A stretch of DNA of 64,000 nucleotides, from the NCBI GenBank assembly GCA_964362665.1, contig CAYIFB010000002.1:14404-78403 (forward strand). Direction: 5' to 3'. The notes below the pieces were generated by a model that made no database searches, was not told the DNA's origin, and saw only the letters and a list, made by a program, of their open reading frames with translations. Within the stretch, counting starts at the first letter, position 1. Each line of letters starts with the position of its first letter. This document shows, one piece after another, positions 25,614-39,548 of the stretch. The DNA comes from an uncultured Gammaproteobacteria bacterium (GTDB taxonomy: Bacteria; Patescibacteriota; Microgenomatia; 2-02-FULL-39-11). The position numbers and the translations under genes are program-made.

Positions 25614-25689
25614 CTTATAATTCCTGATGTTTGTTTTGAGTGTTTGTTTTGAGTGTAATCGAAGGGGAGGACATTAAGAACGTCTTAAT

Positions 25690-25940
25690 TAATTGACAAT
25701 TTATAATGAAATCGCTACTATTCCGGAATGTTGGAAGCTGTAAATCTAATTTCACTGGATTTGGATGGAGTGGTTACCCTAATGTCTCTTTTTTGCTGCA
25801 GAGCCTGGTCTATCAAAAAAACCTGATTGCTTCGCAGAAGCGGCATCGTGTTCTGTGAAAAAAATCCATATTCAGACACTTCATGGCTTGGAGTAAACTC
25901 TCCGCCGATAAATACACCGATATAACATATATCCAGCCAG
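25690..25940 (+). pseudogene. chimeric duplicated fragment: 5' end of gene 29158 fused to 3' end of NUDIX gene 26777..27241
   Basis: 25695-25790 is near-identical to 29121-29215, covering the promoter and first ~20 codons. 25790-25940 is near-identical to 26785-26945. The fused reading frame stops after 32 codons. Confidence 0.65.
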
Positions 25941-26024
25941 GAGTCGGCATTTTAGATATAGACCTATAGTGTACAAATCTTCAATTTTAAGATACAATAA
26001 GGTGATTAGCTTGGGAGTAAACTT

Positions 26025-26696
26025 ATGTTTGAACGTTCTTTTGGATCGAATGATGGTTTTTCTAGGTTAAATAAATGGGGAAGGAAGACTCTGGTTGTTG
26101 GTTTAATATATTCTCTCTCACCAGTAGCTCCACTTCCCGTAGCAGAGGTTGTTGATTTAGGTGATGTTCAAATTCCTTTGAGGTATATAGCCGATTGTTC
26201 ACTAAGTCCTCCTCAAGGAGTAGTAGTAAGCTGTTCTGGGTTTCCAACAACTGATGAAAATAAATGGTGGCCAGTACAAGGCCAACCAGTTTTCATGGCC
26301 CATAATACAACTTATGCGAAACCGGGTGATAACCCGCCGAGAGGCAGATTAAACCCGGGTGCTGAGATGATGAATCATACAGGACAGTGTGTGATTTTTG
26401 GGAATCTTGGGGATTTCAAAATTGGGGAGTTTGTAGAAAAATCTAGAGCAACAGCTTGGCTAACAGATGATTACCCCAGAATAATAACTAGCGCAGGAAT
26501 AGCAGTAAAAATTCCACCCGGTGAGCCGGGTAAGGATGCGGTTACGGTCTACGAAGCCCCGCTTACTCCTTGTGAAGAATTGGATACATTAACCACGGGA
26601 GGGGATGTAATGCTCAATGTGGTCAAGACTGGTGATAATTTATCAAAAAATCGCGGGGAGGTATGGGGGGGCGCTCAAACAGTTAACAGACGCTAA
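26025..26696 (+). CDS. hypothetical secreted protein
   Basis: 223 aa with an N-terminal hydrophobic segment. No recognised domain. Confidence 0.3.
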   Translation: MFERSFGSNDGFSRLNKWGRKTLVVGLIYSLSPVAPLPVAEVVDLGDVQIPLRYIADCSLSPPQGVVVSCSGFPTTDENKWWPVQGQPVFMAHNTTYAKPGDNPPRGRLNPGAEMMNHTGQCVIFGNLGDFKIGEFVEKSRATAWLTDDYPRIITSAGIAVKIPPGEPGKDAVTVYEAPLTPCEELDTLTTGGDVMLNVVKTGDNLSKNRGEVWGGAQTVNRR

Positions 26697-26776: not shown

Positions 26777-27241
26777 CTATGATATTCGTTTTTGCTGCAG
26801 AGCCTGGTCTATCAAAAAAACCTGATTGCTTCGAAGAAGCGGCATTGCATCCTCTGAAAAAAAGCCAAACTCAGATACTTCATGGTTTGGAGTAAACTCT
26901 CCGCCGATAAATACTCCGATATAGCACATGTCGAGTCGGGAGCCGATGCGGTCAGTGCGGGTTTTGAGTGATTCATCGACACTGACCACCAGTCCTGATT
27001 CTTCTTTTATTTCCCGCTCAAGCGCCTCAGCAGGATGCTCGCCGGATTTCAAATATCCGCCCGGCAGACTCCAGGAGTGCTGTCTGTAAGTATGTTTAAA
27101 AAGCAAGACTTCGTTTTTCTCGTTAAAAATAATTCCTGTAACCCCGATCAAAAATTGAGTTTGAAAAAAACGCATGAAAAAGAGCTGTAAGCCTTTGGGA
27201 AGGTTCAATAGTTTCCAGACTTTGGCAAAAAATGATTTCAC
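26777..27241 (-). CDS. NUDIX hydrolase
   Basis: Nudix box GGYLKSGEHPAEALEREIKEESGL fits Gx5Ex7REUxEExGU. Confidence 0.8.
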   Translation of the reverse strand: MKSFFAKVWKLLNLPKGLQLFFMRFFQTQFLIGVTGIIFNEKNEVLLFKHTYRQHSWSLPGGYLKSGEHPAEALEREIKEESGLVVSVDESLKTRTDRIGSRLDMCYIGVFIGGEFTPNHEVSEFGFFSEDAMPLLRSNQVFLIDQALQQKRIS

Positions 27242-28730: not shown

Positions 28731-29157
28731 AAATTTTCTTCGAGTATAAGGTTGTCCCTCGTTTGTCAGATAGGATGATTATATCATACTATAGGTTAAT
28801 GGGTATTCTGATAAACGGGAGTGACGATGGCAGACCAAAGACCGGGAATTTGAGGCATCCTTAATTGTGTTATTTTATTTGATTAATCAAAAATCGACAC
28901 AAAGCCTTAGTGGATTGCTGCGGCGATGATAATGGATAGGCCTATGGAAATTCCGGCAATCAGGATGGCAAGGGCTTTTTGGGGATGGGCGAGAAATAAG
29001 GAAGATAATATTTAAAAACTTACAAAAATAAATAGACTATGGATTTTGCGCATTTATCATATATTAGCAATTTCGGGAAACTTATTCCATTTCGGGAATA
29101 TTGAAAGGTATTACTTTATTAATTGACAATTTATAATGATGTCGCTACAATTCCGGA

Positions 29158-29820
29158 GTGTTGGAAGTTATCAATCTGGTTTCACTGGATTTGGATGGAG
29201 TGGTCACCGCTCGCGGTTTAACTCGTCAATATAACGCTGAAAGAGATTTAAGAAATTTTGGTGCTGTCATCTTTGAAGCACCTCCTTCTGTTCCGGACCA
29301 CCCGCAAACCATTTATCCCGGAGGTTTAAAAGCAGGCGAAATTTTCTCCTTTCTAGGTCATAAGCCAAGAAGAATTACTACGGAAACGAGTGCAGTTATC
29401 GGGGAGGCTCATGCTCGGGGAGTTATATTTAATGTAAATTCTGGAAGAAAAGCAACTCCACCATGGGCTGATATGACAAATAAACTACTCGAAAGGGGCG
29501 GTATTAAACGCTTTATTAAAACCGTTTATCTTCGTCCTCCGGGCTGGGAAACGGGGGTAAGCAAAATAGCAGGAATAGAAGCTATGAGAAAGCCATATAT
29601 AGATGAAGGAAGGCCAGTAAGGCTTTTTGTCTTTGAAGATAATTTTCGAGAAGGAGCGCAGATCGCCCAGTTTTTCCCCAACGCAAAGGTGGTAATCGTG
29701 AGAGATAACAGTACGGAAAAGTTGCGAACTGCTTTTGGTAGGGATTTAGAAAATATTGTATATGCGGATAGTTTTCATGAAGGAATGCGGGAGCATGTGC
29801 TTAAAGATCTATTGAGTTAA
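29158..29820 (+). CDS. HAD-like hypothetical protein (GTG start)
   Basis: LDLDGVV matches HAD motif I. A 5' fragment of this gene is duplicated at 25.7 kb. Confidence 0.35.
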   Translation: MLEVINLVSLDLDGVVTARGLTRQYNAERDLRNFGAVIFEAPPSVPDHPQTIYPGGLKAGEIFSFLGHKPRRITTETSAVIGEAHARGVIFNVNSGRKATPPWADMTNKLLERGGIKRFIKTVYLRPPGWETGVSKIAGIEAMRKPYIDEGRPVRLFVFEDNFREGAQIAQFFPNAKVVIVRDNSTEKLRTAFGRDLENIVYADSFHEGMREHVLKDLLS

Positions 29821-30127: not shown

Positions 30128-31531
30128 ATGACAACAACAGAATACCGAGTATCATCAAAACCATTTGAAGGTTTTGTTCCTGTTGATGTATTAAAGCCAC
30201 CCACAAAAATAGCCTTCATAGCTACAAGCGAGCTTCCGTCAGGAAAAGGTATTGGAAGAGCCTTGGGTATGGAAACATTAGCGCTTTATCTCCGACAAGT
30301 GGACGCCGGACAGACCTTAGAAATGCAGTTTTTAGATATGCAATATGCTGACATAGCCGACCCTATGGCACAGGTGAGATTGCTTTCTGAGGATTCGACC
30401 CTCGATATAGCAGCGATATCCGTCCGCTATAATACGTTTGAGCAAATGTGTCAGATTGTTGAAGTTTTTAGAACATCATCTAGATTTCAACAAACACGTA
30501 AACCATATCTGGTTGTAGGTGGAGTAATGCCTTCGTTCATGGCAAAAGAGATTATAGAAAAATTCCCCGAAATTGGACTTATATCTGGTGAAGGAGAGTT
30601 GGGTCTGAGGGAATTAGTCAGGGTGATAAGAAGTGGTGGATCACTTTACGAGGTACCAGGATTGACTTTTTATGATGCTGTAAAGAGTGAAATAGTCCAA
30701 AATCCAGCTGATAATCTTCCGCTTACTGAAATATCTGTTGGGGGCATTATCAAGGAACTTGTTCCACCATTAAGAGCAAAAGGTGGGATTGTTTGGATTT
30801 CTAGCAGTCGTGGCTGTCCGTGGGATTGCAGTTTTTGTAGTGTTGATACGTTCCGCGAAATAACAGGAGCGCGTGGTAAAACTCGCCGTGAAGAGCGACC
30901 TATTGAACATGTAATAGGGGAAATGAAAGCATTGTATCTAGAGGGTCTGCGTCATTTTGTATTTGCAGATGATGAGATGCTTGTACAGAACGCACAAGAT
31001 CTCAGACGTTGGTACGAGTTTGCTGAGGGATTTAAAAGTGTTGGTGATGATATAACTGTGCAGTGTTCTGTGAGGTCCGATGTTATCTTTAACAATAAAG
31101 ATCGAGATGGTGGAGTTGCAAGGGTAACTGCATTAACAGCGCTTTACGAAGCTGGTATGACTCATGTATATATCGGTTTTGAATCCGGATCACCTGCTCA
31201 GTTAAAAAGATATAATAAATCTGAAACTGTTGAGGATCATCTTGCGGCTATTGATAGATTAAGAAAGATCGGCATATTAGCCGGAGGAGGGTTTATAATG
31301 TTTGACCCTTTGATGAGTTTGGAAGAGATATTAGAGAATATCAGTTTTTTACGCAGAGCTGATTTAATCTCTTTGAAAAGAAAAGACTATGTGGGGGATA
31401 TTTTTGATATGCTTAGAGCTCAAAAAGAATCGATGTATGTTGAACTTCTCAAAAGTGAAGGCCTATTGAGAGAACCTATTCCAAATACCCTGTTTTATAA
31501 TTATGAATTTAAAGATCCAAGGGTAAGATGA
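30128..31531 (+). CDS. B12-binding-domain radical SAM protein
   Basis: WISSSRGCPWDCSFCSV gives a Cx3Cx2C radical SAM cluster. The N-terminal ~200 aa resemble a cobalamin-binding domain, as in class B rSAM. Confidence 0.6.
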   Translation: MTTTEYRVSSKPFEGFVPVDVLKPPTKIAFIATSELPSGKGIGRALGMETLALYLRQVDAGQTLEMQFLDMQYADIADPMAQVRLLSEDSTLDIAAISVRYNTFEQMCQIVEVFRTSSRFQQTRKPYLVVGGVMPSFMAKEIIEKFPEIGLISGEGELGLRELVRVIRSGGSLYEVPGLTFYDAVKSEIVQNPADNLPLTEISVGGIIKELVPPLRAKGGIVWISSSRGCPWDCSFCSVDTFREITGARGKTRREERPIEHVIGEMKALYLEGLRHFVFADDEMLVQNAQDLRRWYEFAEGFKSVGDDITVQCSVRSDVIFNNKDRDGGVARVTALTALYEAGMTHVYIGFESGSPAQLKRYNKSETVEDHLAAIDRLRKIGILAGGGFIMFDPLMSLEEILENISFLRRADLISLKRKDYVGDIFDMLRAQKESMYVELLKSEGLLREPIPNTLFYNYEFKDPRVR

Positions 31532-31612
31532 ATTGCCCAAACCTGTATTGGACTTGCGGCAGAGATAGATGTTTTTTTTGAAACGTTAAAAAACGCAGTC
31601 TTTGCCAAGACA

Positions 31613-31948
31613 ATGCAAGATGAAAGAAGTGCTGGAGCAAGCAATGATACAAATCTTTTAAATCATATACTTATAGATATGCGATTATTGGATTTATCTT
31701 TACTCGAAGCATTGACAAATCAAACCTTAGAACGAAAGAGTACATCACCTGAGAGAGTAGGTATGACTTTTGAAGATCTAGTATATTCCTACAGACTGGA
31801 AAGAAAAAAGTTGATAATGAAACTTGCAGATGAAATAAGATCAGGAAATGTAGAAGAAGAGGCGGGTGGGGTATTGCTCTCACGTATTCTCGAATTACCG
31901 GAGTTTCAAGAGGAACGACAAAGGGGAAATGTTCAAATTGTTATATAA
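31613..31948 (+). CDS. hypothetical protein
   Basis: 111-aa acidic ORF. Confidence 0.3.
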   Translation: MQDERSAGASNDTNLLNHILIDMRLLDLSLLEALTNQTLERKSTSPERVGMTFEDLVYSYRLERKKLIMKLADEIRSGNVEEEAGGVLLSRILELPEFQEERQRGNVQIVI

Positions 31949-32090
31949 GTTTAAGACTACGTATAGTTTGATATTCCACTTTATTCTAGATCTTTTTATA
32001 TAAAATTATAATTATTAAAAAGCTTAAAATCCTACTCTATATCCAGATAAAGTTTATACGCCATCAAAGGTGGTACCAACCTGCAGAACT

Positions 32091-32198
32091 TGCAGTGATT
32101 TATGAAAAAGTTCGAACCTATTTTCTCGCTGACTCCTAGCTCGCCCCGCCTCCGGCGGGGCTCGCATGGTCGGCGCGTCGCCCCCGCCCGACGCGCCT
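32091..32198. repeat. inverted repeat A' (108 bp, GC-rich), partner of 37732..37839
   Basis: Exact reverse-complement identity read directly from the sequence. Confidence 0.9.
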
Positions 32199-32669
32199 AA
32201 GGCATTGTCTGCGCGCGCGTTTTCTCTCTCCGCTGAGCGGATCGAGCAAGGTAGGATTATAGTAGCACAAAGCCCAGTACGTTGTGATTCCGTATCAACC
32301 CACCCACCCAAAACAAATATTGATGGCGGCGACCCCGCCTTGTGCGAGAGGGCGCCCTAGGGGGCGCCTCGCCAATGTTCAGGTAATTTATTTTCTCTTT
32401 CAGTCTCTACCGAAGTTAGTTTTGATTTAGCATGTCCTGCAGTCGGCGAGATATCCGCTTTTCGCCCCCGCCGCTCATATCGTATCCCTGTCCAGCGTTC
32501 GGTTGGCTTGCGCGCCCGCTTATGGGTACGCGCTTCGCGCGAAGATAATTATTTTAGCGCCCGGCGCGCCACGTTCGGATCGTGGATAGAGCGCGCGTAT
32601 GAACGCGCGCCTTTTAGCTAGTGCTACCCGGGGAAGCGGGGGCGGCGGAGCCGCCAAAGCTATTCTGAA

Positions 32670-33314
32670 TTAGAATTTTCTTTCAAAGTTGGTAGAAAAA
32701 GAAGAAAAAAAATTTCTGTAGATATCAGAGTTCGTCTTTGCGTGCCATAATTGTGTTAGATACTTGTGGATTCCGTTTTCAAAGCAGACTAAAAGCATAC
32801 GAGTATCAACAAGCAGTCTTTTTTTCTTTCTTTCCCATTTTAGCAAGTTTGGTAACGGTTCTATCAGGACACTATGACGTAAGAGAAATTTATGTACGAG
32901 TTGATTTCTGATTCCAAAGTAAAAAATTTCTGAATACTTAACTTTCTGTTTTTTGTAAAACCATTTCTCTCGACTTCCAATCTGTGCTGGATGGTATGGC
33001 TGTTTTATTTCTTTTTTAAATTGCTTGCTTAGATAATCTTCGAGAAATAAAGGAAAATATTTATTTGGTTCGTCTTTTGCATATCTAAATCTACTTAAAA
33101 ATTCGACCCCAACGGATACCATTACTGCTAATCCAAACATTGAACCCGCCTTTTCCTTAATGCGTTTTGTGTCTTCAATAAGCCATGGGAGTATTCTTCT
33201 ATTTTCAAACCAATAAAGTTTTTCGTTATCGGCTAGCTTAGAAAAGTCAATATCACTCCACGTTGAAGGAAAGAGGTCGATCATTACTTTTCTCTTTTTC
33301 GTTGGAGTTATCAT
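32670..33314 (-). CDS. hypothetical protein (island cargo, second gene of operon)
   Basis: 214 aa. Lies 9 nt downstream of the 343-aa gene on the same strand. Confidence 0.35.
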   Translation of the reverse strand: MITPTKKRKVMIDLFPSTWSDIDFSKLADNEKLYWFENRRILPWLIEDTKRIKEKAGSMFGLAVMVSVGVEFLSRFRYAKDEPNKYFPLFLEDYLSKQFKKEIKQPYHPAQIGSREKWFYKKQKVKYSEIFYFGIRNQLVHKFLLRHSVLIEPLPNLLKWERKKKRLLVDTRMLLVCFENGIHKYLTQLWHAKTNSDIYRNFFSSFSTNFERKF

Positions 33315-33322
33315 GGCTGTAA

Positions 33323-34354
33323 TTACTTATTAGAATTTCCGCTCACAAGTTGCAGTGGCGCTATAGTGAAAGAGGGGAATTCTTCGTCCTGTGGAAGTTC
33401 TGTTCCTGTAATGATTTTTCCAATTGCACGTCTAACATTTTGTGTATTTTGGTGGATAGCGGAATAAATTTTAAGACGGTCTTCCCAATCTCTTTTATGG
33501 CTATTTACTTCCTTAATAAGTAGATTATATGCCGCTCTAACCTTTTCCAAATTATCAACCATGTTTTTCTTGAATTCTCCAGTTTGCATATATCTCAAAA
33601 TTTCTCGTCCTTTTTGGTCTGTCTGTTCCTTGGTTAGCTTCATTCGATGGATATCAATAAGTATATTTCTTAATAGAAAAGCTAGATCCAGTAAGCCTAG
33701 TGGGTCAATGACAATAACTTCATCGTCAATAAAAAATTTAGATTTATTTTCTTTCTGTGCATGCGTTACAATAACGGCATAGTCTGCGCGTGCGACATCC
33801 TGATGACCCTTTATTTCTTTAACGAACCCATTATTATATTTTTCTGTTCTTTTGCATTCATATAAAACGCTTCCAACGTTTTCGTCGTTGAATACAACAA
33901 ATTGAATGACATCGCCCATTTTTCCAGTCGATTGGATTTTATCCGTGGGGAAAGCATCGGATAGCATTTTTTGGACCTCCTTTTCATATTCAAAGCCTGC
34001 TGTTTGAGGAGTTTTTCCTTCCTTAAGTTGTTTTTCTAGTTCTTGAATTTTTTTATTATTAGCTTGCAGTGCCTTAGTCTGATTTTGAAGCATTTTTGTC
34101 ATCCTCATCCGTTCGCTTTGTTCCTTTTTAATTCCTTTGGCTACACCCGACTCTTCTGCCAGTTTTGTCGCTTTTTTTACATCTTCTTGATATTTCTTCT
34201 TTAATTCCTCCTCCTGTTTTTTGTATTTATCAATCGCCTTTTTGGCCTCTATGATAATTTTTTGCCTTTCTTCCCATTGTCCTGTTATCCTTATCCAAGT
34301 TTCTCTTGTTAAGATGCTTTCGCATAGCGGGCATTTATAGGTTTGATTATCCAT
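33323..34354 (-). CDS. zinc-finger / coiled-coil protein with C-terminal PD-(D/E)xK-like nuclease motif
   Basis: N-terminal CPLC...C zinc knuckle, ~120 aa of Lys/Glu-rich coiled coil, then GDVIQFVVF...LYECK resembling the D...ExK nuclease core. Confidence 0.4.
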   Translation of the reverse strand: MDNQTYKCPLCESILTRETWIRITGQWEERQKIIIEAKKAIDKYKKQEEELKKKYQEDVKKATKLAEESGVAKGIKKEQSERMRMTKMLQNQTKALQANNKKIQELEKQLKEGKTPQTAGFEYEKEVQKMLSDAFPTDKIQSTGKMGDVIQFVVFNDENVGSVLYECKRTEKYNNGFVKEIKGHQDVARADYAVIVTHAQKENKSKFFIDDEVIVIDPLGLLDLAFLLRNILIDIHRMKLTKEQTDQKGREILRYMQTGEFKKNMVDNLEKVRAAYNLLIKEVNSHKRDWEDRLKIYSAIHQNTQNVRRAIGKIITGTELPQDEEFPSFTIAPLQLVSGNSNK

Positions 34355-34416
34355 ATATTTTTACTTCTTGACAATAGTCATAGAAAAGTAATAAATTAAT
34401 AATAGACCAACTGCCT

Positions 34417-35019
34417 ATGAAAGTCAATGCCGCCATGACCATAACACCGAAGCAGAAGCAGGTATTGGATTTCATCAAGAGCTTCGTCAAAAATAACGGC
34501 TATTCGCCGTCGCTCCATGAGATCGCGGGACATTTCCGAAAATCCGTCAGCACCGCTCAGCATTTCGTCGAGGAGCTGGACAATAGGGGATTTCTTCAAA
34601 AAACAGACAATGTAGCCCGTGGAATCAGCACGGCAATCCAGCAATTTGGCCGCATCTTCAAGCTCGGCGTCATCGCCGCAGGCAATCCGATAGAACCGAT
34701 TGAGAATCCGGAACCGATCGATGTGCCTTTATCTATGATAAGCAGAAAAGGAGATTACTATGCGCTTGAAGTAAGGGGGACCAGCATGATGGACGATAAT
34801 ATTCTTGACGGGGATATTATTGTTGTCCGACACCAGAAAATTGTAGAGGATGGCGATCGAGTAGTTGCGGTTACGGAAAAAGGCGCCACTCTAAAAGTTT
34901 ATCGGAATAGAAATGGTAAAGTATATCTTGAGCCTCGAAATAAGTCCTTAAGCAATATTTATCCAAAAGAGCTTGAGATTCGCGGCAAGTTTTGTGGTTT
35001 AATAAGAAAAGGAGACTAA
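34417..35019 (+). CDS. LexA-like S24 autopeptidase repressor
   Basis: N-terminal winged HTH (SPSLHEIAGHF). C-terminal ALEVRGTSMMDDNILDGDIIVV matches the S24 Ser-Lys peptidase motif GxSM...GD. Confidence 0.75.
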   Translation: MKVNAAMTITPKQKQVLDFIKSFVKNNGYSPSLHEIAGHFRKSVSTAQHFVEELDNRGFLQKTDNVARGISTAIQQFGRIFKLGVIAAGNPIEPIENPEPIDVPLSMISRKGDYYALEVRGTSMMDDNILDGDIIVVRHQKIVEDGDRVVAVTEKGATLKVYRNRNGKVYLEPRNKSLSNIYPKELEIRGKFCGLIRKGD

Positions 35020-35044: not shown

Positions 35045-35452
35045 ATGACAGATGTATTTACAAAGAAAAAGCGGAGCCTGATAATGTCGCGGATAAGTGG
35101 AAAGCATACATTGCCGGAATTAAGAGTTAGAAAAGCACTTTACAGTATAGGTATAAGATACAGATTGCACAATAAGAAGCTTTCTGGGCATCCGGATATT
35201 GTTATTAGGAGAAAGAAAGCGGCTTTATTCGTTAATGGTTGTTTTTGGCATCAGCATAAGAATTGCAAGAGAAGTACTATACCGAAAACGAATAAAAAGT
35301 ATTGGCTGCCGAAATTAAAAAGGAATATTGAAAAGCAAGTAGAGGATTTTAGGAAATTAAGAAAAGAAGGGTGGAAGACGACAGTCGTTTGGGAATGTCA
35401 AACAAAAAATCAGATTAAGCTCGAATCAAGATTAAGAAGAATATTTGTATGA
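35045..35452 (+). CDS. vsr: very-short-patch-repair endonuclease
   Basis: KRSLIMSRI...PDIV...FVNGCFWHQH aligns with Vsr (TRSKNMRAI...PDFV...FTHGCFWHHH). Overlaps the start of the downstream m5C methyltransferase. Confidence 0.8.
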   Translation: MTDVFTKKKRSLIMSRISGKHTLPELRVRKALYSIGIRYRLHNKKLSGHPDIVIRRKKAALFVNGCFWHQHKNCKRSTIPKTNKKYWLPKLKRNIEKQVEDFRKLRKEGWKTTVVWECQTKNQIKLESRLRRIFV

Positions 35453-36555
35453 AGAAAAAAGTTTTCAGAATTGCAGAATTATTTTCAGGTCCCGGCGGCT
35501 TGGCTTTTGGTGCCGTCAATACGCACGTATCTACTTCTGATTTGGAATATACGCTTGAATCAGTTTGGTCAAATGACATTGACGCGGATGCCTGCAGAAC
35601 CTATGCCCGAAATATTCATGGCGGCGATCAATCGAAAACAATCTGCAAACCTGTTCAGGAGCTTGATTTCGAAAAGCTTCCTGCATTCGATGCTTTAGCT
35701 TTCGGATTTCCATGCAATGACTTCAGCGTTGTGGGAGAACAGAAGGGGTTCAATGGAAAATATGGACCTCTTTATTCCTACGGAGTAAAAGCAATCAACG
35801 CACATAACCCAATGCTGTTTATTGCAGAAAATGTCAGCGGACTGCAGAGCGCGAACAAAGGAGATGCGTTTGCAAAGATTTTGAGCGATTTAGAGCACGC
35901 GGGCAAGGGATATCGCTTAACAACTCATCTTTATAAATTCGAAGACTACGGTGTACCGCAATATAGACACAGGGTAGTTATTATCGGAATTCGGAGTGAT
36001 CTGAATCTAAAGTTCAACGTGCCTGCTCCTACAACTTTGCAGAAATATGTTACCGCGCGGGATGCTCTTGAAAAACCGCCTATTTCTGCAGATGCGCCAA
36101 ACAACGAATTGACGCGGCAGTCTGAGGTTGTGATTGAAAGATTGAAATACATACCGCCTGGGAAGAATGCTTGGTATGAAGGCATTCCTGAACACCTGCG
36201 GCTGAACGTAAAAAAAGCACGCATGAGTCAGATATACAAGCGTCTTGATCCTAATAAGCCCGCATACACAATTACTGGTTCAGGCGGCGGCGGCACCCAT
36301 GTCTATCATTGGAAGGAAAATAGAGCGCTGACTAATAGGGAGCGTGCGCGCCTGCAATCCTTTCCTGATAAGTTTGTTTTTGAAGGATCAAAAGAGAGCG
36401 TGCGCAAACAGATCGGCATGGCTGTTCCTCCAAAAGGAGCAAGTGCAGTAATTTCGGCTGTATTGAAAACTTTCGCCGGGTTATCTTATCCATCTGTTCC
36501 GGCAAAACTTACGAACGGGTTTCCTCCGCTCAACGGAATGCTGTTTGATTTTTAG
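35449..36555 (+). CDS. DNA (cytosine-5)-methyltransferase
   Basis: Motif I FSGPGG, motif IV PCNDFS, motif VI ENV, and a C-terminal QIGMAVPP-type motif. Confidence 0.85.
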   Translation: MKKKVFRIAELFSGPGGLAFGAVNTHVSTSDLEYTLESVWSNDIDADACRTYARNIHGGDQSKTICKPVQELDFEKLPAFDALAFGFPCNDFSVVGEQKGFNGKYGPLYSYGVKAINAHNPMLFIAENVSGLQSANKGDAFAKILSDLEHAGKGYRLTTHLYKFEDYGVPQYRHRVVIIGIRSDLNLKFNVPAPTTLQKYVTARDALEKPPISADAPNNELTRQSEVVIERLKYIPPGKNAWYEGIPEHLRLNVKKARMSQIYKRLDPNKPAYTITGSGGGGTHVYHWKENRALTNRERARLQSFPDKFVFEGSKESVRKQIGMAVPPKGASAVISAVLKTFAGLSYPSVPAKLTNGFPPLNGMLFDF

Positions 36556-37391
36556 AGGATGCTGATAAGCTTCTCCCAATCTTTCCTATTTTTCTTCAGG
36601 AGACCGGATTTTTTTACAAACCTTTTTCCGTCGAATTCCTGACCCTCAATGCTCGTTACTTCTTCCAGATCATCGGCCCAACACCATCCGGATACCTCGC
36701 AGGGAATTTCGGAAAAGTCCGGAATAACGGCGCTGTATTTGCTGAAGTGAGGCATATTTTTCACAACTGACACGATTTCCTGTTTTGCAATTCTCAACAG
36801 ATGGTCGTCAGGAATTTCCGGTCTGCAGTAAATATATATGTCCGAACGCCGAGCTGGGATATTTATTTCATTTTCACCCAAAATCAAATACGCGCTTTTT
36901 GGCTTCGATGATTTTATTCCGACGCCTTTGCGTGGCTTCTGCATTTTACCGTTTCGTACAATACCGATAATGTCCTGCGGCACGATCTCTCCGTAGATAT
37001 TAAAATCAAGTTCGACTTCTGTATTGAATTCCTTTTTGAAGAATTTTTTGACGGCTACTTCGCCAAGCTGTCCTTTAACCCAATTGGTGATTTTTTGACC
37101 GAATTCGCGTTGTCTCGCGGTACCCCAATCAGAAAGCACATATCCGCGGAAATGCTGAGCAAGAGCAAAGTCGAGACATAAGGCATAATCAGCCTTTGTT
37201 AAACTGATGGTCCGCCACGCATAGCTCTTTTTCCATTCTGCAAGGGTTTCCTCCGAAAACATGAATCTGCCGTGGGAGCCGTTTCTTTCCATGCATTTGA
37301 ACTCCTCGGCGTTTTTGAAGTAGTTGTCGAAAGCCTTCGGATCAAGGCCGGTATAGGCGATTGCGTCTTTTTTGCTTAGTATCTTGCCCAT
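36552..37391 (-). CDS. putative type II restriction endonuclease
   Basis: Convergent with and overlapping the methyltransferase. Immediately downstream of a C-protein gene. No recognised family. Confidence 0.45.
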   Translation of the reverse strand: MGKILSKKDAIAYTGLDPKAFDNYFKNAEEFKCMERNGSHGRFMFSEETLAEWKKSYAWRTISLTKADYALCLDFALAQHFRGYVLSDWGTARQREFGQKITNWVKGQLGEVAVKKFFKKEFNTEVELDFNIYGEIVPQDIIGIVRNGKMQKPRKGVGIKSSKPKSAYLILGENEINIPARRSDIYIYCRPEIPDDHLLRIAKQEIVSVVKNMPHFSKYSAVIPDFSEIPCEVSGWCWADDLEEVTSIEGQEFDGKRFVKKSGLLKKNRKDWEKLISIL

Positions 37392-37392
37392 A

Positions 37393-37614
37393 TTATTTGA
37401 TAAAGTATTCGATATTCTTTCTGTAGATTTCTGCGATTTGTTTCAGTTGGACAAGATCGATTCTTCGTTGTCCAGATTCCATTTTTGAAATATATGACTG
37501 CGACTTATTCAGCAGTTTTGCCGCAGTTTTCTGATCGAGCTTGGCAGAGAGCCGGGCAGATTTCAGCTTTTCGATAAGATTTTTATGCTCTTTTGTATAG
37601 ATGTCTTTTGACAT
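37393..37614 (-). CDS. XRE-family HTH controller (C) protein
   Basis: 73 aa. QKTAAKLLNKSQSYISKMESGQRRI is an HTH_XRE motif. Its stop abuts the restriction enzyme start. Confidence 0.6.
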   Translation of the reverse strand: MSKDIYTKEHKNLIEKLKSARLSAKLDQKTAAKLLNKSQSYISKMESGQRRIDLVQLKQIAEIYRKNIEYFIK

Positions 37615-37674: not shown

Positions 37675-37731
37675 CGTACAGAAATTTCTGCGGGGTCTTT
37701 AAATTTTAAAATTTCGAGCCGATGCGTTTGC

Positions 37732-37839
37732 AGGCGCGTCGGGCGGGGGCGACGCGCCGACCATGCGAGCCCCGCCGGAGGCGGGGCGAGCTAGGAGTCA
37801 GCGAGAAAATAGGTTCGAACTTTTTCATAAATCACTGCA
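37732..37839. repeat. inverted repeat A (108 bp)
   Basis: Reverse complement of 32091..32198. Overlaps repeat B by the 5-nt CTGCA. Confidence 0.9.
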
Positions 37840-37936
37840 GAAAGAGAATTCGAGGCTCCGCCGGATGGTTGGCTCTGCGCGGGTGGGGTCGCGCAGAGTG
37901 TTTGGAAGGGCTCGCGGAAAACGGCCGAGAGCCGCC
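37835..37936. repeat. inverted repeat B (102 bp), partner of 39379..39480
   Basis: Exact reverse-complement identity. Begins with CTGCAG. Confidence 0.9.
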
Positions 37937-37982
37937 GAAGACAAAAAGAAGGAAAGACCCCGCAGAAATTTCTTTTCATTAT

Positions 37983-39503
37983 ATGAAATACATTGCGTAC
38001 TGTAGAAGATCGACTGATGAGAAAGATAGGCAAGTTCTGTCTATAGAGGCGCAAATTGCAGAAATTAAAGAATACGCAAAGCGGGAGCAGGTAGATATCG
38101 CTGAATTCATCACCGAGTCTAGAACCGCCAAGGAGCCGGGCCGTCCATTATTTGCCGATCTTATAGGTAAAATTGAACGGGGACTGGCCTCTGGCATTAT
38201 CGCATGGCATCCTGATAGACTTGCCCGTAATTCTATAGACGGCGGCCGGATTATTTACCTTATCGACATCGGCAAGCTCGGCGGGCTCAAATTTCCGACG
38301 TTTTGGTTTGAAAATACGCCGCAGGGAAAATTCATGCTCTCAATCGCCTTCGGCCAGTCCAAATATTACGTCGATAACCTCTCGGAAAATGTGAAGCGCG
38401 GCATCCGGCAGAAGCTGAGAAACGGCGTGTGGCCGCATAATGCACCGCTTGGCTATCTCAACGATCTTAAAGTGCATTCCATTCTCGTTGATCCAAAGAC
38501 CGCGCCGCTCGTGCAGAAATCATTTAAACGATTTGCGTCGCGCACTGTTTCATTTACTGATATTGCGCGCATGTTTGCTGATAGCGGAATTCGTAGGAAA
38601 AGCGGCCGCATTATTCATATCAACACAGTGCGCAACATGCTCGCCAACAGATTTTATATCGGGCAAATGATTCATCTTGGCGAATATTACGATGGTACGC
38701 ATGAACAGATTATTGATCGAAATTTATTTTATAAGGTACAGACGGAGCTAATGCGTATTGAGCGTCCGCATTTCAAGGGACATCATTTTCCGTTTGTGGG
38801 ACTTGCGCGGTGCGGAGAGTGCGGCGGGGCAATTACCGGAGAAATCCATACAAAATATTATCGCACCACCCGAGGAAAAGTTACATACACATATTACCGA
38901 TGTACGAAGAAATTTGGTCCGTGTTTTAGTAGGTATCTTACCGATTCCGAATTTGAGAAACAGATTCGAGTATTGGTTGCTTCGGTTGGATTGCCGCAGG
39001 AGTGGGAGAGTGAGTGGCGGCAGAAATTTACTATGGATTCGGAATCGGAAAAGATTGGGGCAGAGAAACGGCGGCAAGTTTTGGAATTAAAATTAGCGGA
39101 TATAAATGGAAAGCTCGATCTGTTGCTCGATGGACTTCTTGATCAGACGATTGATCAGGGTGCATATCGGAAAAAGAAAAATACGCTTTCAGAAAATAAG
39201 CGTCAAACGGATGAAGAAAAGAAAGATATTTTGTCGGGGAAAAATAAACGGCTCGAACTCATGAAGGAATTTATAGACAGCGCCTTTCAGGCGCATAAAA
39301 TCGCGCGCGCAGACAATGCCTGCGAAGATTTGGCAATCTTCGCCAAACGCATCGGCTCGAACTTCTTTTTGAAAGACCGGCGGCTCTCGGCCGTTTTCCG
39401 CGAGCCCTTCCAAACACTCTGCGCGACCCCACCCGCGCAGAGCCAACCATCCGGCGGAGCCTCGAATTCTCTTTCTGCAGGTCCGCAGCGATTCGAACGC
39501 TGA
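37983..39503 (+). CDS. large serine recombinase (resolvase/invertase-type catalytic domain + recombinase domain + zinc ribbon + coiled coil)
   Basis: MKYIAYCRRSTDEKDRQVLSIEAQ contains the catalytic Ser. The resolvase core is followed by a recombinase domain, a CGECGG...C zinc ribbon and a coiled coil. The upstream extension of the ORF (from 37722) lies inside repeats A/B and was rejected. Confidence 0.85.
   Translation: MKYIAYCRRSTDEKDRQVLSIEAQIAEIKEYAKREQVDIAEFITESRTAKEPGRPLFADLIGKIERGLASGIIAWHPDRLARNSIDGGRIIYLIDIGKLGGLKFPTFWFENTPQGKFMLSIAFGQSKYYVDNLSENVKRGIRQKLRNGVWPHNAPLGYLNDLKVHSILVDPKTAPLVQKSFKRFASRTVSFTDIARMFADSGIRRKSGRIIHINTVRNMLANRFYIGQMIHLGEYYDGTHEQIIDRNLFYKVQTELMRIERPHFKGHHFPFVGLARCGECGGAITGEIHTKYYRTTRGKVTYTYYRCTKKFGPCFSRYLTDSEFEKQIRVLVASVGLPQEWESEWRQKFTMDSESEKIGAEKRRQVLELKLADINGKLDLLLDGLLDQTIDQGAYRKKKNTLSENKRQTDEEKKDILSGKNKRLELMKEFIDSAFQAHKIARADNACEDLAIFAKRIGSNFFLKDRRLSAVFREPFQTLCATPPAQSQPSGGASNSLSAGPQRFER
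39379..39480. repeat. inverted repeat B' (102 bp)
   Basis: Reverse complement of 37835..37936. Encodes the last ~35 codons of the recombinase and ends inside the tRNA-Trp 3' end. Confidence 0.9.
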
Positions 39504-39548
39504 ATAAGGGTTTTGGAGACCCTTGTGATACCATTTCACTACGGACCT
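39478..39548 (-). tRNA. trnW: tRNA-Trp (anticodon CCA)
   Basis: Folded by hand. Acceptor AGGUCCG/CGGACCU (7 bp), U8, D-stem GUGA/UCAC, anticodon stem AGGGU/ACCCU with loop CUCCAAA, 4-nt variable loop, T-arm CAGCG-UUCGAAU-CGCUG, discriminator G. The anticodon loop is identical to E. coli tRNA-Trp. CCA is not encoded. Confidence 0.8.

Follow-up and report, generated by a model that had tools for sequence, protein, structure and literature searches.

In a 64,000-nucleotide (nt) stretch of DNA from an uncultured Patescibacteria (Microgenomates) genome, hereafter called the window, a gene for a LexA-type repressor heads a DNA methyltransferase (MTase) operon and stands back to back with an operon for a DUF2130 protein of 343 amino acids (aa) and an uncharacterized protein of 214 aa. 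Comparison with related loci makes it fairly likely that this is a modular and mobile patescibacterial defence island, in which a LexA cleavable upon DNA damage links a front-line restriction-modification (R-M) system to a swappable second-line effector. The gene architecture, intact motifs, control core, cargo variability and mobile context were observed directly, and from them we infer the regulation and the defence function. The evidence is drawn by comparison from metagenome assemblies and covers about a dozen independent loci, among which the locus in the window is counted as WIN and its relatives are numbered L001-L096. Because of the surrounding R-M genes, recombinase, tRNA-Trp and inverted repeats, the arrangement can be placed within a mobile R-M island of approximately 7.5 kb (32.05-39.55 kb), whose features are as follows (positions in the window).

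32670-33314, minus strand: gene for the 214-aa protein, an uncharacterized family with an Rx4H motif, at the end of the cargo operon
33323-34354, minus strand: DUF2130 gene (343 aa, PF09903), the cargo effector of the window
34355-34430: shared control region with two face-to-face predicted promoters
34417-35019, plus strand: lexA (200 aa, LexA_DNA_bind and Peptidase_S24), first gene of the methyltransferase operon
35045-35452, plus strand: vsr, very-short-patch repair endonuclease (PF03852, E 3e-29)
35449-36555, plus strand: dcm, C5-cytosine DNA methyltransferase, the M subunit (PF00145, E 1.8e-72)
36552-37391, minus strand: Type II restriction endonuclease (REase) candidate (PADLOC REase_II, E 3e-17; no Pfam match)
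37393-37614, minus strand: controller (C) protein, HTH_3 (PF01381, E 7e-13), directly upstream of the REase gene
37983-39503, plus strand: large serine recombinase (Resolvase, Recombinase and Zn_ribbon_recom domains)
39477-39548, minus strand: tRNA-Trp (ARAGORN; Rfam tRNA, 62.9 bits)

The lexA and DUF2130 genes are separated by 62 bp, and only 8 nt lie between the DUF2130 stop codon and the start of the 214-aa gene, these two genes being probably co-transcribed. On the other side, vsr begins 25 nt after the end of lexA and overlaps dcm by 4 nt, while the C and REase genes, in the order C-R, run convergently with dcm. The M subunit, the REase candidate and the upstream helix-turn-helix (HTH) C protein are the complete set of a predicted C-controlled Type II R-M system. 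A preliminary description of the locus had missed that LexA leads the lexA-vsr-dcm operon of this system. The elements it did list were all recovered, namely the three open reading frames (ORFs), the 62-bp gap, the Ala-Gly, Ser and Lys residues of LexA, the CxxC motif, the coiled coil and the D...ExK core, and its general picture of a self-cleavable LexA-type repressor divergent from an effector of nuclease fold within a mobile defence island was borne out as well, sister loci holding bona fide anti-phage systems at the same place.

The repressor contains a winged-HTH domain (PF01726, E 3e-13) and a Peptidase_S24 domain (PF00717, E 3e-22), scores 145.8 bits against the NCBIfam equivalog TIGR00498 (cutoff 110.95) and falls into a cluster of at least 90% identity with a Gottesmanbacteria protein annotated as 'repressor LexA'. 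Both the cleavage site (Ala88-Gly89) and the catalytic dyad (Ser123/Lys160) are intact in the alignment, and we take A88-G89, S123 and K160 to lie opposite A84-G85, S119 and K156 of E. coli LexA. By its sequence, the protein is an autocleavable LexA-family repressor. It has no homology to CapW, CapH/CapP or CapK/CapS, its domains being LexA_DNA_bind and S24 only, and PADLOC returned nothing for it except weak CARF-HTH matches. A second LexA, 39% identical to that of the window, is encoded on the L013 contig (8370-8996, minus strand) alongside a LexA-MTase/DUF2130 cassette, which hints that a cassette LexA and a separate, perhaps housekeeping, LexA can coexist.

Linkage of LexA to a methyltransferase, either as the adjoining gene or as a one-ORF fusion, is the most constant feature of these loci and was found in 12 of the 13 independent ones. 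The enzymes concerned are of several types. LexA is joined by Vsr-Dcm in the window and L015, by Dcm in L087, L090 and L094, by a D12 MTase in L012, L085 and L092, by N6_Mtase together with Dcm in L013 and by a double MTase of 923 aa in L017, and in-frame fusions of LexA to an N6_N4 MTase occur in two independent families (L007/L035/L036 and L042/L043). Wherever a DUF2130 locus includes a divergent LexA, a DNA MTase follows the LexA. The fusion ORFs, which are L007:6025-7569(-) (the same in L035 and L036; 514 aa) and L042:5964-7556(-) (the same in L043; 530 aa), retain LexA_DNA_bind and Peptidase_S24 together with the AAG site, the Ser and the Lys, and are divergent from a small ORF and DUF2130; self-cleavage of such a fusion would separate its methylase from the DNA-binding part. 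This LexA clade comprises roughly 800 proteins. Five LexA homologues were looked up that had been picked only by identity and extent of contig. In four of them the cargo (that is, whatever is transcribed away from lexA) is separated by 59-69 bp from LexA, which is followed by Vsr in some cases, by an MTase and then by an REase. Three of these four loci have a C protein, whereas L094-L096 have no called C protein and carry instead a serine recombinase 47% identical to that of the window.

The control region of the window contains two predicted promoters facing each other, both of which were listed by the promoter scan. That of lexA, on the plus strand, consists of TTGACA (34368-34373), a spacer of 17-18 nt and ATAAAT/TAAATT (to 34397); that of the cargo, on the minus strand, consists of TTGACT (34427-34422), 17 nt and TATTAT (34404-34399) and lies wholly within the lexA leader and codons 2-4 (MKVN). 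The same patterns, TTGACA-17/18-TAAAYT and, on the opposite strand, TTGACT-17-TATTAT, occur across the loci. A 40-nt core beginning at TTGACA is 70-97% identical among nine loci, compared with 34-62% for third codon positions of lexA, and the core is kept across 10 loci with five cargo types, whatever the cargo. Considering that the cargo-strand promoter sits in the lexA leader and first codons and that the cargo ATG follows the lexA -35 box by only 14-23 nt in every locus, the cassette brings its own divergent promoter. Three direct repeats spaced by 11 bp (AGTCATA/AGTAATA/AATAATA, 34376-34404) extend over the two -10 boxes as well as the two start sites, which are predicted near 34392 on the minus strand and 34404 on the plus strand, and the same repeat pattern is present at the equivalent position in L087-L096, which makes them a candidate LexA operator; a direct-repeat LexA motif in Patescibacteria is mentioned in a passage of PMC7739468 that cites Sanchez-Osuna 2017. 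A palindromic operator, for which the preliminary description had proposed to search the 62-bp gap, did not emerge: the gap holds only a weak TGAC-N4-GTCA over the -35 box, seen in six of nine loci and not conserved. To test for an SOS regulon, the window was scanned for the control motif at other positions, and no further copies beyond chance turned up. In the LexA::MTase fusion loci, two outward TTGACA boxes enclose a clear dyad, CTTTCGAT-N23-ATCGAAAG, which the window lacks.

What stands opposite lexA varies greatly. Based on PADLOC, the cargo is a cyclase of the cyclic oligonucleotide-based anti-phage signalling system (CBASS; E 3e-95) with a 2TM effector in L087, a fused AriAB of the phage anti-restriction-induced system (PARIS; E 1e-58) in L092, PDC-M36A (E 1e-48) in L090, and PDC-M50A with two ThsB-TIR proteins in L094, while the window, L012, L013, L015 and L017 have DUF2130 as cargo. 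Thus, one LexA control region is found opposite diverse immune operons. The LexA of the window shares 82-88% identity with the LexAs opposite CBASS, PDC-M36 and PARIS, those of L012-L015, opposite DUF2130, share 83-84% with the one opposite the TIR genes, and DUF2130 occurs with both LexA subclades. The cargo does not follow the LexA phylogeny, and cargo exchange is therefore implied.

The cargo effector of the window matches PF09903 (DUF2130/COG4487) with an E value of 9e-25 and 87.8 bits, against a gathering score of 26.7; this family has been filed under PD-(D/E)xK with its function not assigned (PMC3424549). The preliminary description had recognized neither cargo protein, which holds for the 214-aa protein (no Pfam, NCBIfam or PADLOC match) and not for the 343-aa one. 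Residues invariant across 27 DUF2130 homologues include C8-P-x-C11, D148 and E166-C-K168. An AlphaFold2 monomer model (mean predicted local distance difference test score, pLDDT, 83) shows a beta-knuckle at the N terminus, a single helix of 85 residues, an alpha/beta core and long helices at the C terminus; the restriction-endonuclease-like core bears the D...ExK motif (D148, E166-x-K168) and agrees with the PD-(D/E)xK fold previously suggested for it, so that both motif and model mark DUF2130 as a candidate PD-(D/E)xK nuclease. A comparison with the PDB by sequence yielded coiled-coil noise only. As for the zinc finger that had been proposed, CPLC is present, but C8 and C11 are the only conserved N-terminal cysteines and one chain does not provide four zinc ligands; a zinc site shared between subunits at CPLC is possible.

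A total of 78 DUF2130 loci were fetched, of which a scan of a genome collection gave only seven, a metagenome scan being used for the rest. Homologues of DUF2130 and of its partner are annotated as Levy-, Curtiss-, Kuenen- and Berkelbacteria. Approximately two-thirds of about 32 distinct loci of candidate phyla radiation (CPR) type have an MTase, an REase, Type I/ISP subunits, Mrr or a 1,520-aa helicase-nuclease no more than three genes away, 11 have a LexA/S24 neighbour, and seven show a holin-like divergent neighbour and housekeeping-looking genes. No description of the R-M and LexA association was found in the literature on DUF2130. Two of these 11 loci encode HTH proteins with an S24 domain and a UmuD-like Cys-Gly site (L022:1238-1870(+) and L028:7282-7950(+)) that overlap the DUF2130 start in an arrangement of translational coupling, and the pair in L028 lies behind an SNF2 helicase and a Type ISP methylase/specificity protein. 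Judging from these motifs, the two loci are a second, independent tie of DUF2130 to an autocleavable regulator. In L009:2479-9002 and L041:2917-9002, an operon runs from a LexA-like gene (208-212 aa) through an HSDR_N-fused N6 methylase, DUF6119 (in L009) and a Type I S subunit to DUF2130, which occupies the place expected for an HsdR-type nuclease.

The 214-aa protein represents a rare family, with 26 close homologues and 49 representatives among 1.84 billion proteins. Its Rx4H motif is R136-N-Q-L-V-H141, in which R136 is invariant and H141 is conserved in more than 90% of 43 sequences sharing 17-64% identity (consensus FRNGLxH), and it thereby shows the Rx4-6H pattern of HEPN RNases. Searches of Pfam, NCBIfam and PADLOC gave no match for the family, even when the 43 distant members were included, nor did searches of the PDB by sequence profile or by Foldseek for the protein itself. 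We tentatively regard it as a HEPN-like RNase on the strength of this motif. Conservation of the repressor, DUF2130 and the 214-aa protein as a trio, on which the preliminary description had made its reading depend, was not borne out: tblastn detected the 214-aa gene in none of the 78 fetched DUF2130 loci, and only one of the seven other distinct 214-aa loci (L001) contains a DUF2130, which is distant and separated by one gene. That locus is a defence island (L001:849-6645) comprising T5orf172, an EcoRI-like methylase, GmrSD, the distant DUF2130 of 395 aa, SIR2_2 and the 214-aa member. In several loci the 214-aa gene comes last, after SIR2_2 in L001 and L002 (overlapping the SIR2_2 stop by 4 nt in L001), after ResIII and genes for 1128 aa and 165 aa (L004), after a type IV secretion system-like ATPase with a serine recombinase alongside (L083), or after M78, DUF4411 and a 171-aa gene (L084); it is solitary beside QatABCD in L003 and beside Mrr/GIY-YIG/PIN genes in L086. 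The sole locus resembling the window is L085, where a LexA (56% identical) followed by a D12 MTase diverges from genes for 139 aa, 331 aa and a 215-aa member of the family. From these contexts, the 214-aa protein appears to be a promiscuous terminal add-on and not an obligate partner of DUF2130, and tblastn over 82 loci together with seven context look-ups ruled it out as a fixed partner of DUF2130.

Mobility of the island is indicated by its ends. A perfect inverted repeat of 108 nt (32091-32198/37732-37839, 100% complementary) brackets the 5.5-kb, seven-gene R-M/cargo module, and a perfect one of 103 nt (37835-37937/39378-39480) brackets the serine recombinase, the last approximately 40 codons of which lie inside the arm at 39378-39480. 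The two repeats join at CTGCA (junction 37732-37937), and this junction is flanked by a 21-nt inverted repeat (37680-37700/37953-37973). Short pieces of the recombinase 3' coding sequence are also present at 32200-32223 and 37710-37730. The tRNA-Trp gene abuts the right repeat arm and is probably the integration site of the island; the left arm (32091-32198), which is GC-rich and has internal hairpins, is probably an island end or recombination site. Between this arm and the end of the 214-aa gene, the stretch 32050-32670 comprises some 600 nt of non-coding DNA with many GC hairpins and a GC content of approximately 47-55%, compared with approximately 40% for the genome. Rfam identified only the tRNA-Trp and an L10 leader in the window and nothing at 32.05-32.67 kb or in the repeat arms, and no DNA relatives of the arms or of the 32050-32670 stretch were found in the fetched loci. 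The repeat arrangement could be an invertible or nested mobile structure, and it may also be an assembly artefact. In addition, recombinases 47% identical to that of the window follow the LexA-R-M cassette in L094-L096 and DUF2130 in L030.

A damage-controlled defence island of this kind would work as follows. LexA would bind the 11-bp-spaced direct repeats and hold both operons low, one promoter driving lexA-vsr-dcm and the other whatever gene sits upstream. RecA-coated single-stranded DNA (ssDNA), produced when a phage replicates, when incoming DNA is restricted or when lagging methylation leads to self-restriction, would trigger self-cleavage of LexA at Ala88-Gly89. The methylase and Vsr would then rise so that self DNA is protected, and the dangerous second-line cargo effector would be released upon loss of LexA. 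In the window, DUF2130 would act as a DNA nuclease, possibly dimerized via its coiled coil and a shared zinc at CPLC, and the 214-aa protein as a HEPN-like RNase.

The strongest rival to the defence island is a housekeeping SOS function, in which an ordinary host LexA controls DUF2130 as an SOS-induced repair or recombination nuclease, with an SbcC/Rad50-like coiled coil and CPLC as its hook, R-M genes having been inserted beside lexA. Such a role would be consistent with the TIGR00498 score above the cutoff, with the combination of CPLC and a long helix, with the wide distribution of DUF2130 in CPR at 55-70% identity and its seven loci in housekeeping-like contexts, and with the SOS network that passages of PMC7739468 and PMC8565304 report for Patescibacteria (Sanchez-Osuna 2017). 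Nevertheless, we consider it unlikely, given that LexAs of the same clade, with the same control region, stand opposite CBASS, PARIS, TIR and PDC genes in place of DUF2130, that LexA shares operons with or is fused to MTases of three chemical classes, that the unit travels with a serine recombinase and lies in the window between perfect repeats by a tRNA, and that the L013 contig possesses another LexA of 39% identity. Simple packing of genes in a defence island, with LexA regulating only itself and the MTase and DUF2130 having its own unregulated promoter, would account for the adjacency too; defence genes generally cluster, and the promoter predictions are not above chance. However, the constant distance of the cargo start codon from the lexA -35 box (about 14-23 nt), together with the fact that the sole conserved cargo-strand -35/-10 pair lies inside the lexA leader and first codons, renders mere adjacency quite improbable.

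Two other proposals concern the cargo genes themselves. LexA, DUF2130 and the 214-aa protein might form a dedicated three-gene toxin or defence system, the last of them being an obligate partner (antitoxin, sensor or co-effector). The 8-nt gap and probable co-transcription would fit such a system, as would L085, whose LexA-MTase pair diverges from the 139-aa, 331-aa and 215-aa operon ending in the 214-aa family, and L001, in which a distant DUF2130 lies two genes upstream of a 214-aa member. Since the partner is present in none of about 70 other DUF2130 loci and follows varied genes elsewhere, this proposal is largely refuted by co-occurrence and is very improbable. Alternatively, DUF2130 might be a second REase cognate to the adjoining MTase, in an SsoII-like divergent R/M pair in which LexA stands in for the HTH at the N terminus of the MTase. 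Members of DUF2130 sharing 55-72% identity occur beside C5, N6/N4, D12 and Type I/ISP MTases and also in MTase-less loci. Variation of the MTase class to this extent is more than a sequence-specific REase would tolerate and makes a role as cognate enzyme unlikely for DUF2130, and the window already has a complete M, R and C set. We accord this proposal hardly any probability.

PrrC and RloC are latent suicide nucleases linked to R-M systems that serve as back-up effectors, and RloC joins a HEPN-type anticodon nuclease to a coiled coil and a CxxC zinc hook. In the window, a CPLC-containing coiled-coil nuclease candidate and an Rx4H protein likewise lie beside an R-M system; however, the proteins are unrelated in sequence to PrrC and RloC, the CxxC is N-terminal rather than at the apex of the coiled coil, the nuclease is of the predicted PD-(D/E)xK type and control would be transcriptional. 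A resemblance in logic exists to CapW/BrxR (WYL), CapH+CapP and CapK+CapS, in which a DNA-damage or ssDNA signal inactivates a repressor encoded beside exchangeable immune operons such as CBASS and Thoeris (PMC13373217, PMC9122588, PMC11662680, bioRxiv 10.1101/2022.04.27.489752), as is presumed for LexA here. Approximately 20% of capK+capS pairs have an R-M operon on one side and an immune operon on the other, CBASS being a frequent neighbour, and a coupling of front-line R-M to later abortive infection has been proposed (PMC13373217); the layout of R-M system, damage sensor and immune operon, and its logic, are the same in the LexA cassette. In contrast to these Cap regulators, the regulator here is a LexA winged HTH with an S24 autopeptidase, presumably dependent on activated RecA, it is the first gene of an R-M methyltransferase operon or fused to the methyltransferase, the predicted bidirectional promoter is part of the lexA leader, and the hosts are Patescibacteria. 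Canonical LexA of the SOS response (TIGR00498) has the same domain architecture, Ala-Gly site and Ser/Lys dyad, and autoregulation through a site overlapping the promoter is plausible in the window as well, whereas the lexA gene of the window lies in a mobile R-M cassette, is co-transcribed with vsr-dcm, diverges from defence cargo and has an operator that is apparently not a palindrome. C-protein Type II R-M systems and MTases of the SsoII/EcoRII/ScrFI type with an N-terminal HTH (references in PMC3874152) share with the window the C-R genes convergent with M, a regulator tied to the MTase gene and a divergent promoter region, and differ from it in that the window has a second, stress-cleavable regulator on the M side and a divergent gene that is not the cognate REase.

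A more specific reading of the defence island is plausible, though we would stop short of calling it probable: that of a portable LexA cassette, a RecA-sensing repressor built into a mobile R-M methyltransferase and in some cases fused to it, whose leader supplies a divergent promoter that puts captured genes under DNA-damage control. In this two-tier immunity, restriction damage would license abortive-infection effectors, and DUF2130 and the 214-aa Rx4H family, which occupy the slot that elsewhere holds CBASS, PARIS and Thoeris-like cargo, would be new anti-phage effectors. The literature on DUF2130, on LexA and R-M fusions, on LexA and CBASS, and on LexA in CPR/Patescibacteria yielded no description of such a cassette. 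Damage-gated immune operons are already known; what is new is a version in Patescibacteria that is led by LexA, linked to an MTase, carried with a recombinase and equipped with its own divergent promoter, together with DUF2130 and the Rx4H family as candidate effectors. If correct, this would bring the classical LexA/RecA switch, and with it the host-dependent and poorly understood Patescibacteria, into the emerging picture of immune operons licensed by DNA damage, and would provide a concrete genetic mechanism that couples front-line restriction to second-line effectors and raises the methylase upon self-restriction. It would also offer a function-by-context lead for the widespread DUF2130/COG4487 family, listed as 'unknown' since at least 2012, and for the rare Rx4H family, and the conserved LexA leader would mark a slot from which new defence genes could be harvested.

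Outside the island, just beyond the left repeat arm (30128-31948), a B12-binding radical SAM enzyme is encoded ahead of an ORF of 111 aa that has no family match, and the two could be a small peptide-modification pair. Further to the left, 5'/promoter regions containing TTGACAATTTATAATG are duplicated at 88% identity (25684-25946, 26786-26945 and 29114-29208), and two unannotated genes downstream of such TTGACAATTTATAATG-bearing regions (26025-26696 and 29158-29820) look like paralogues with a common regulatory leader.

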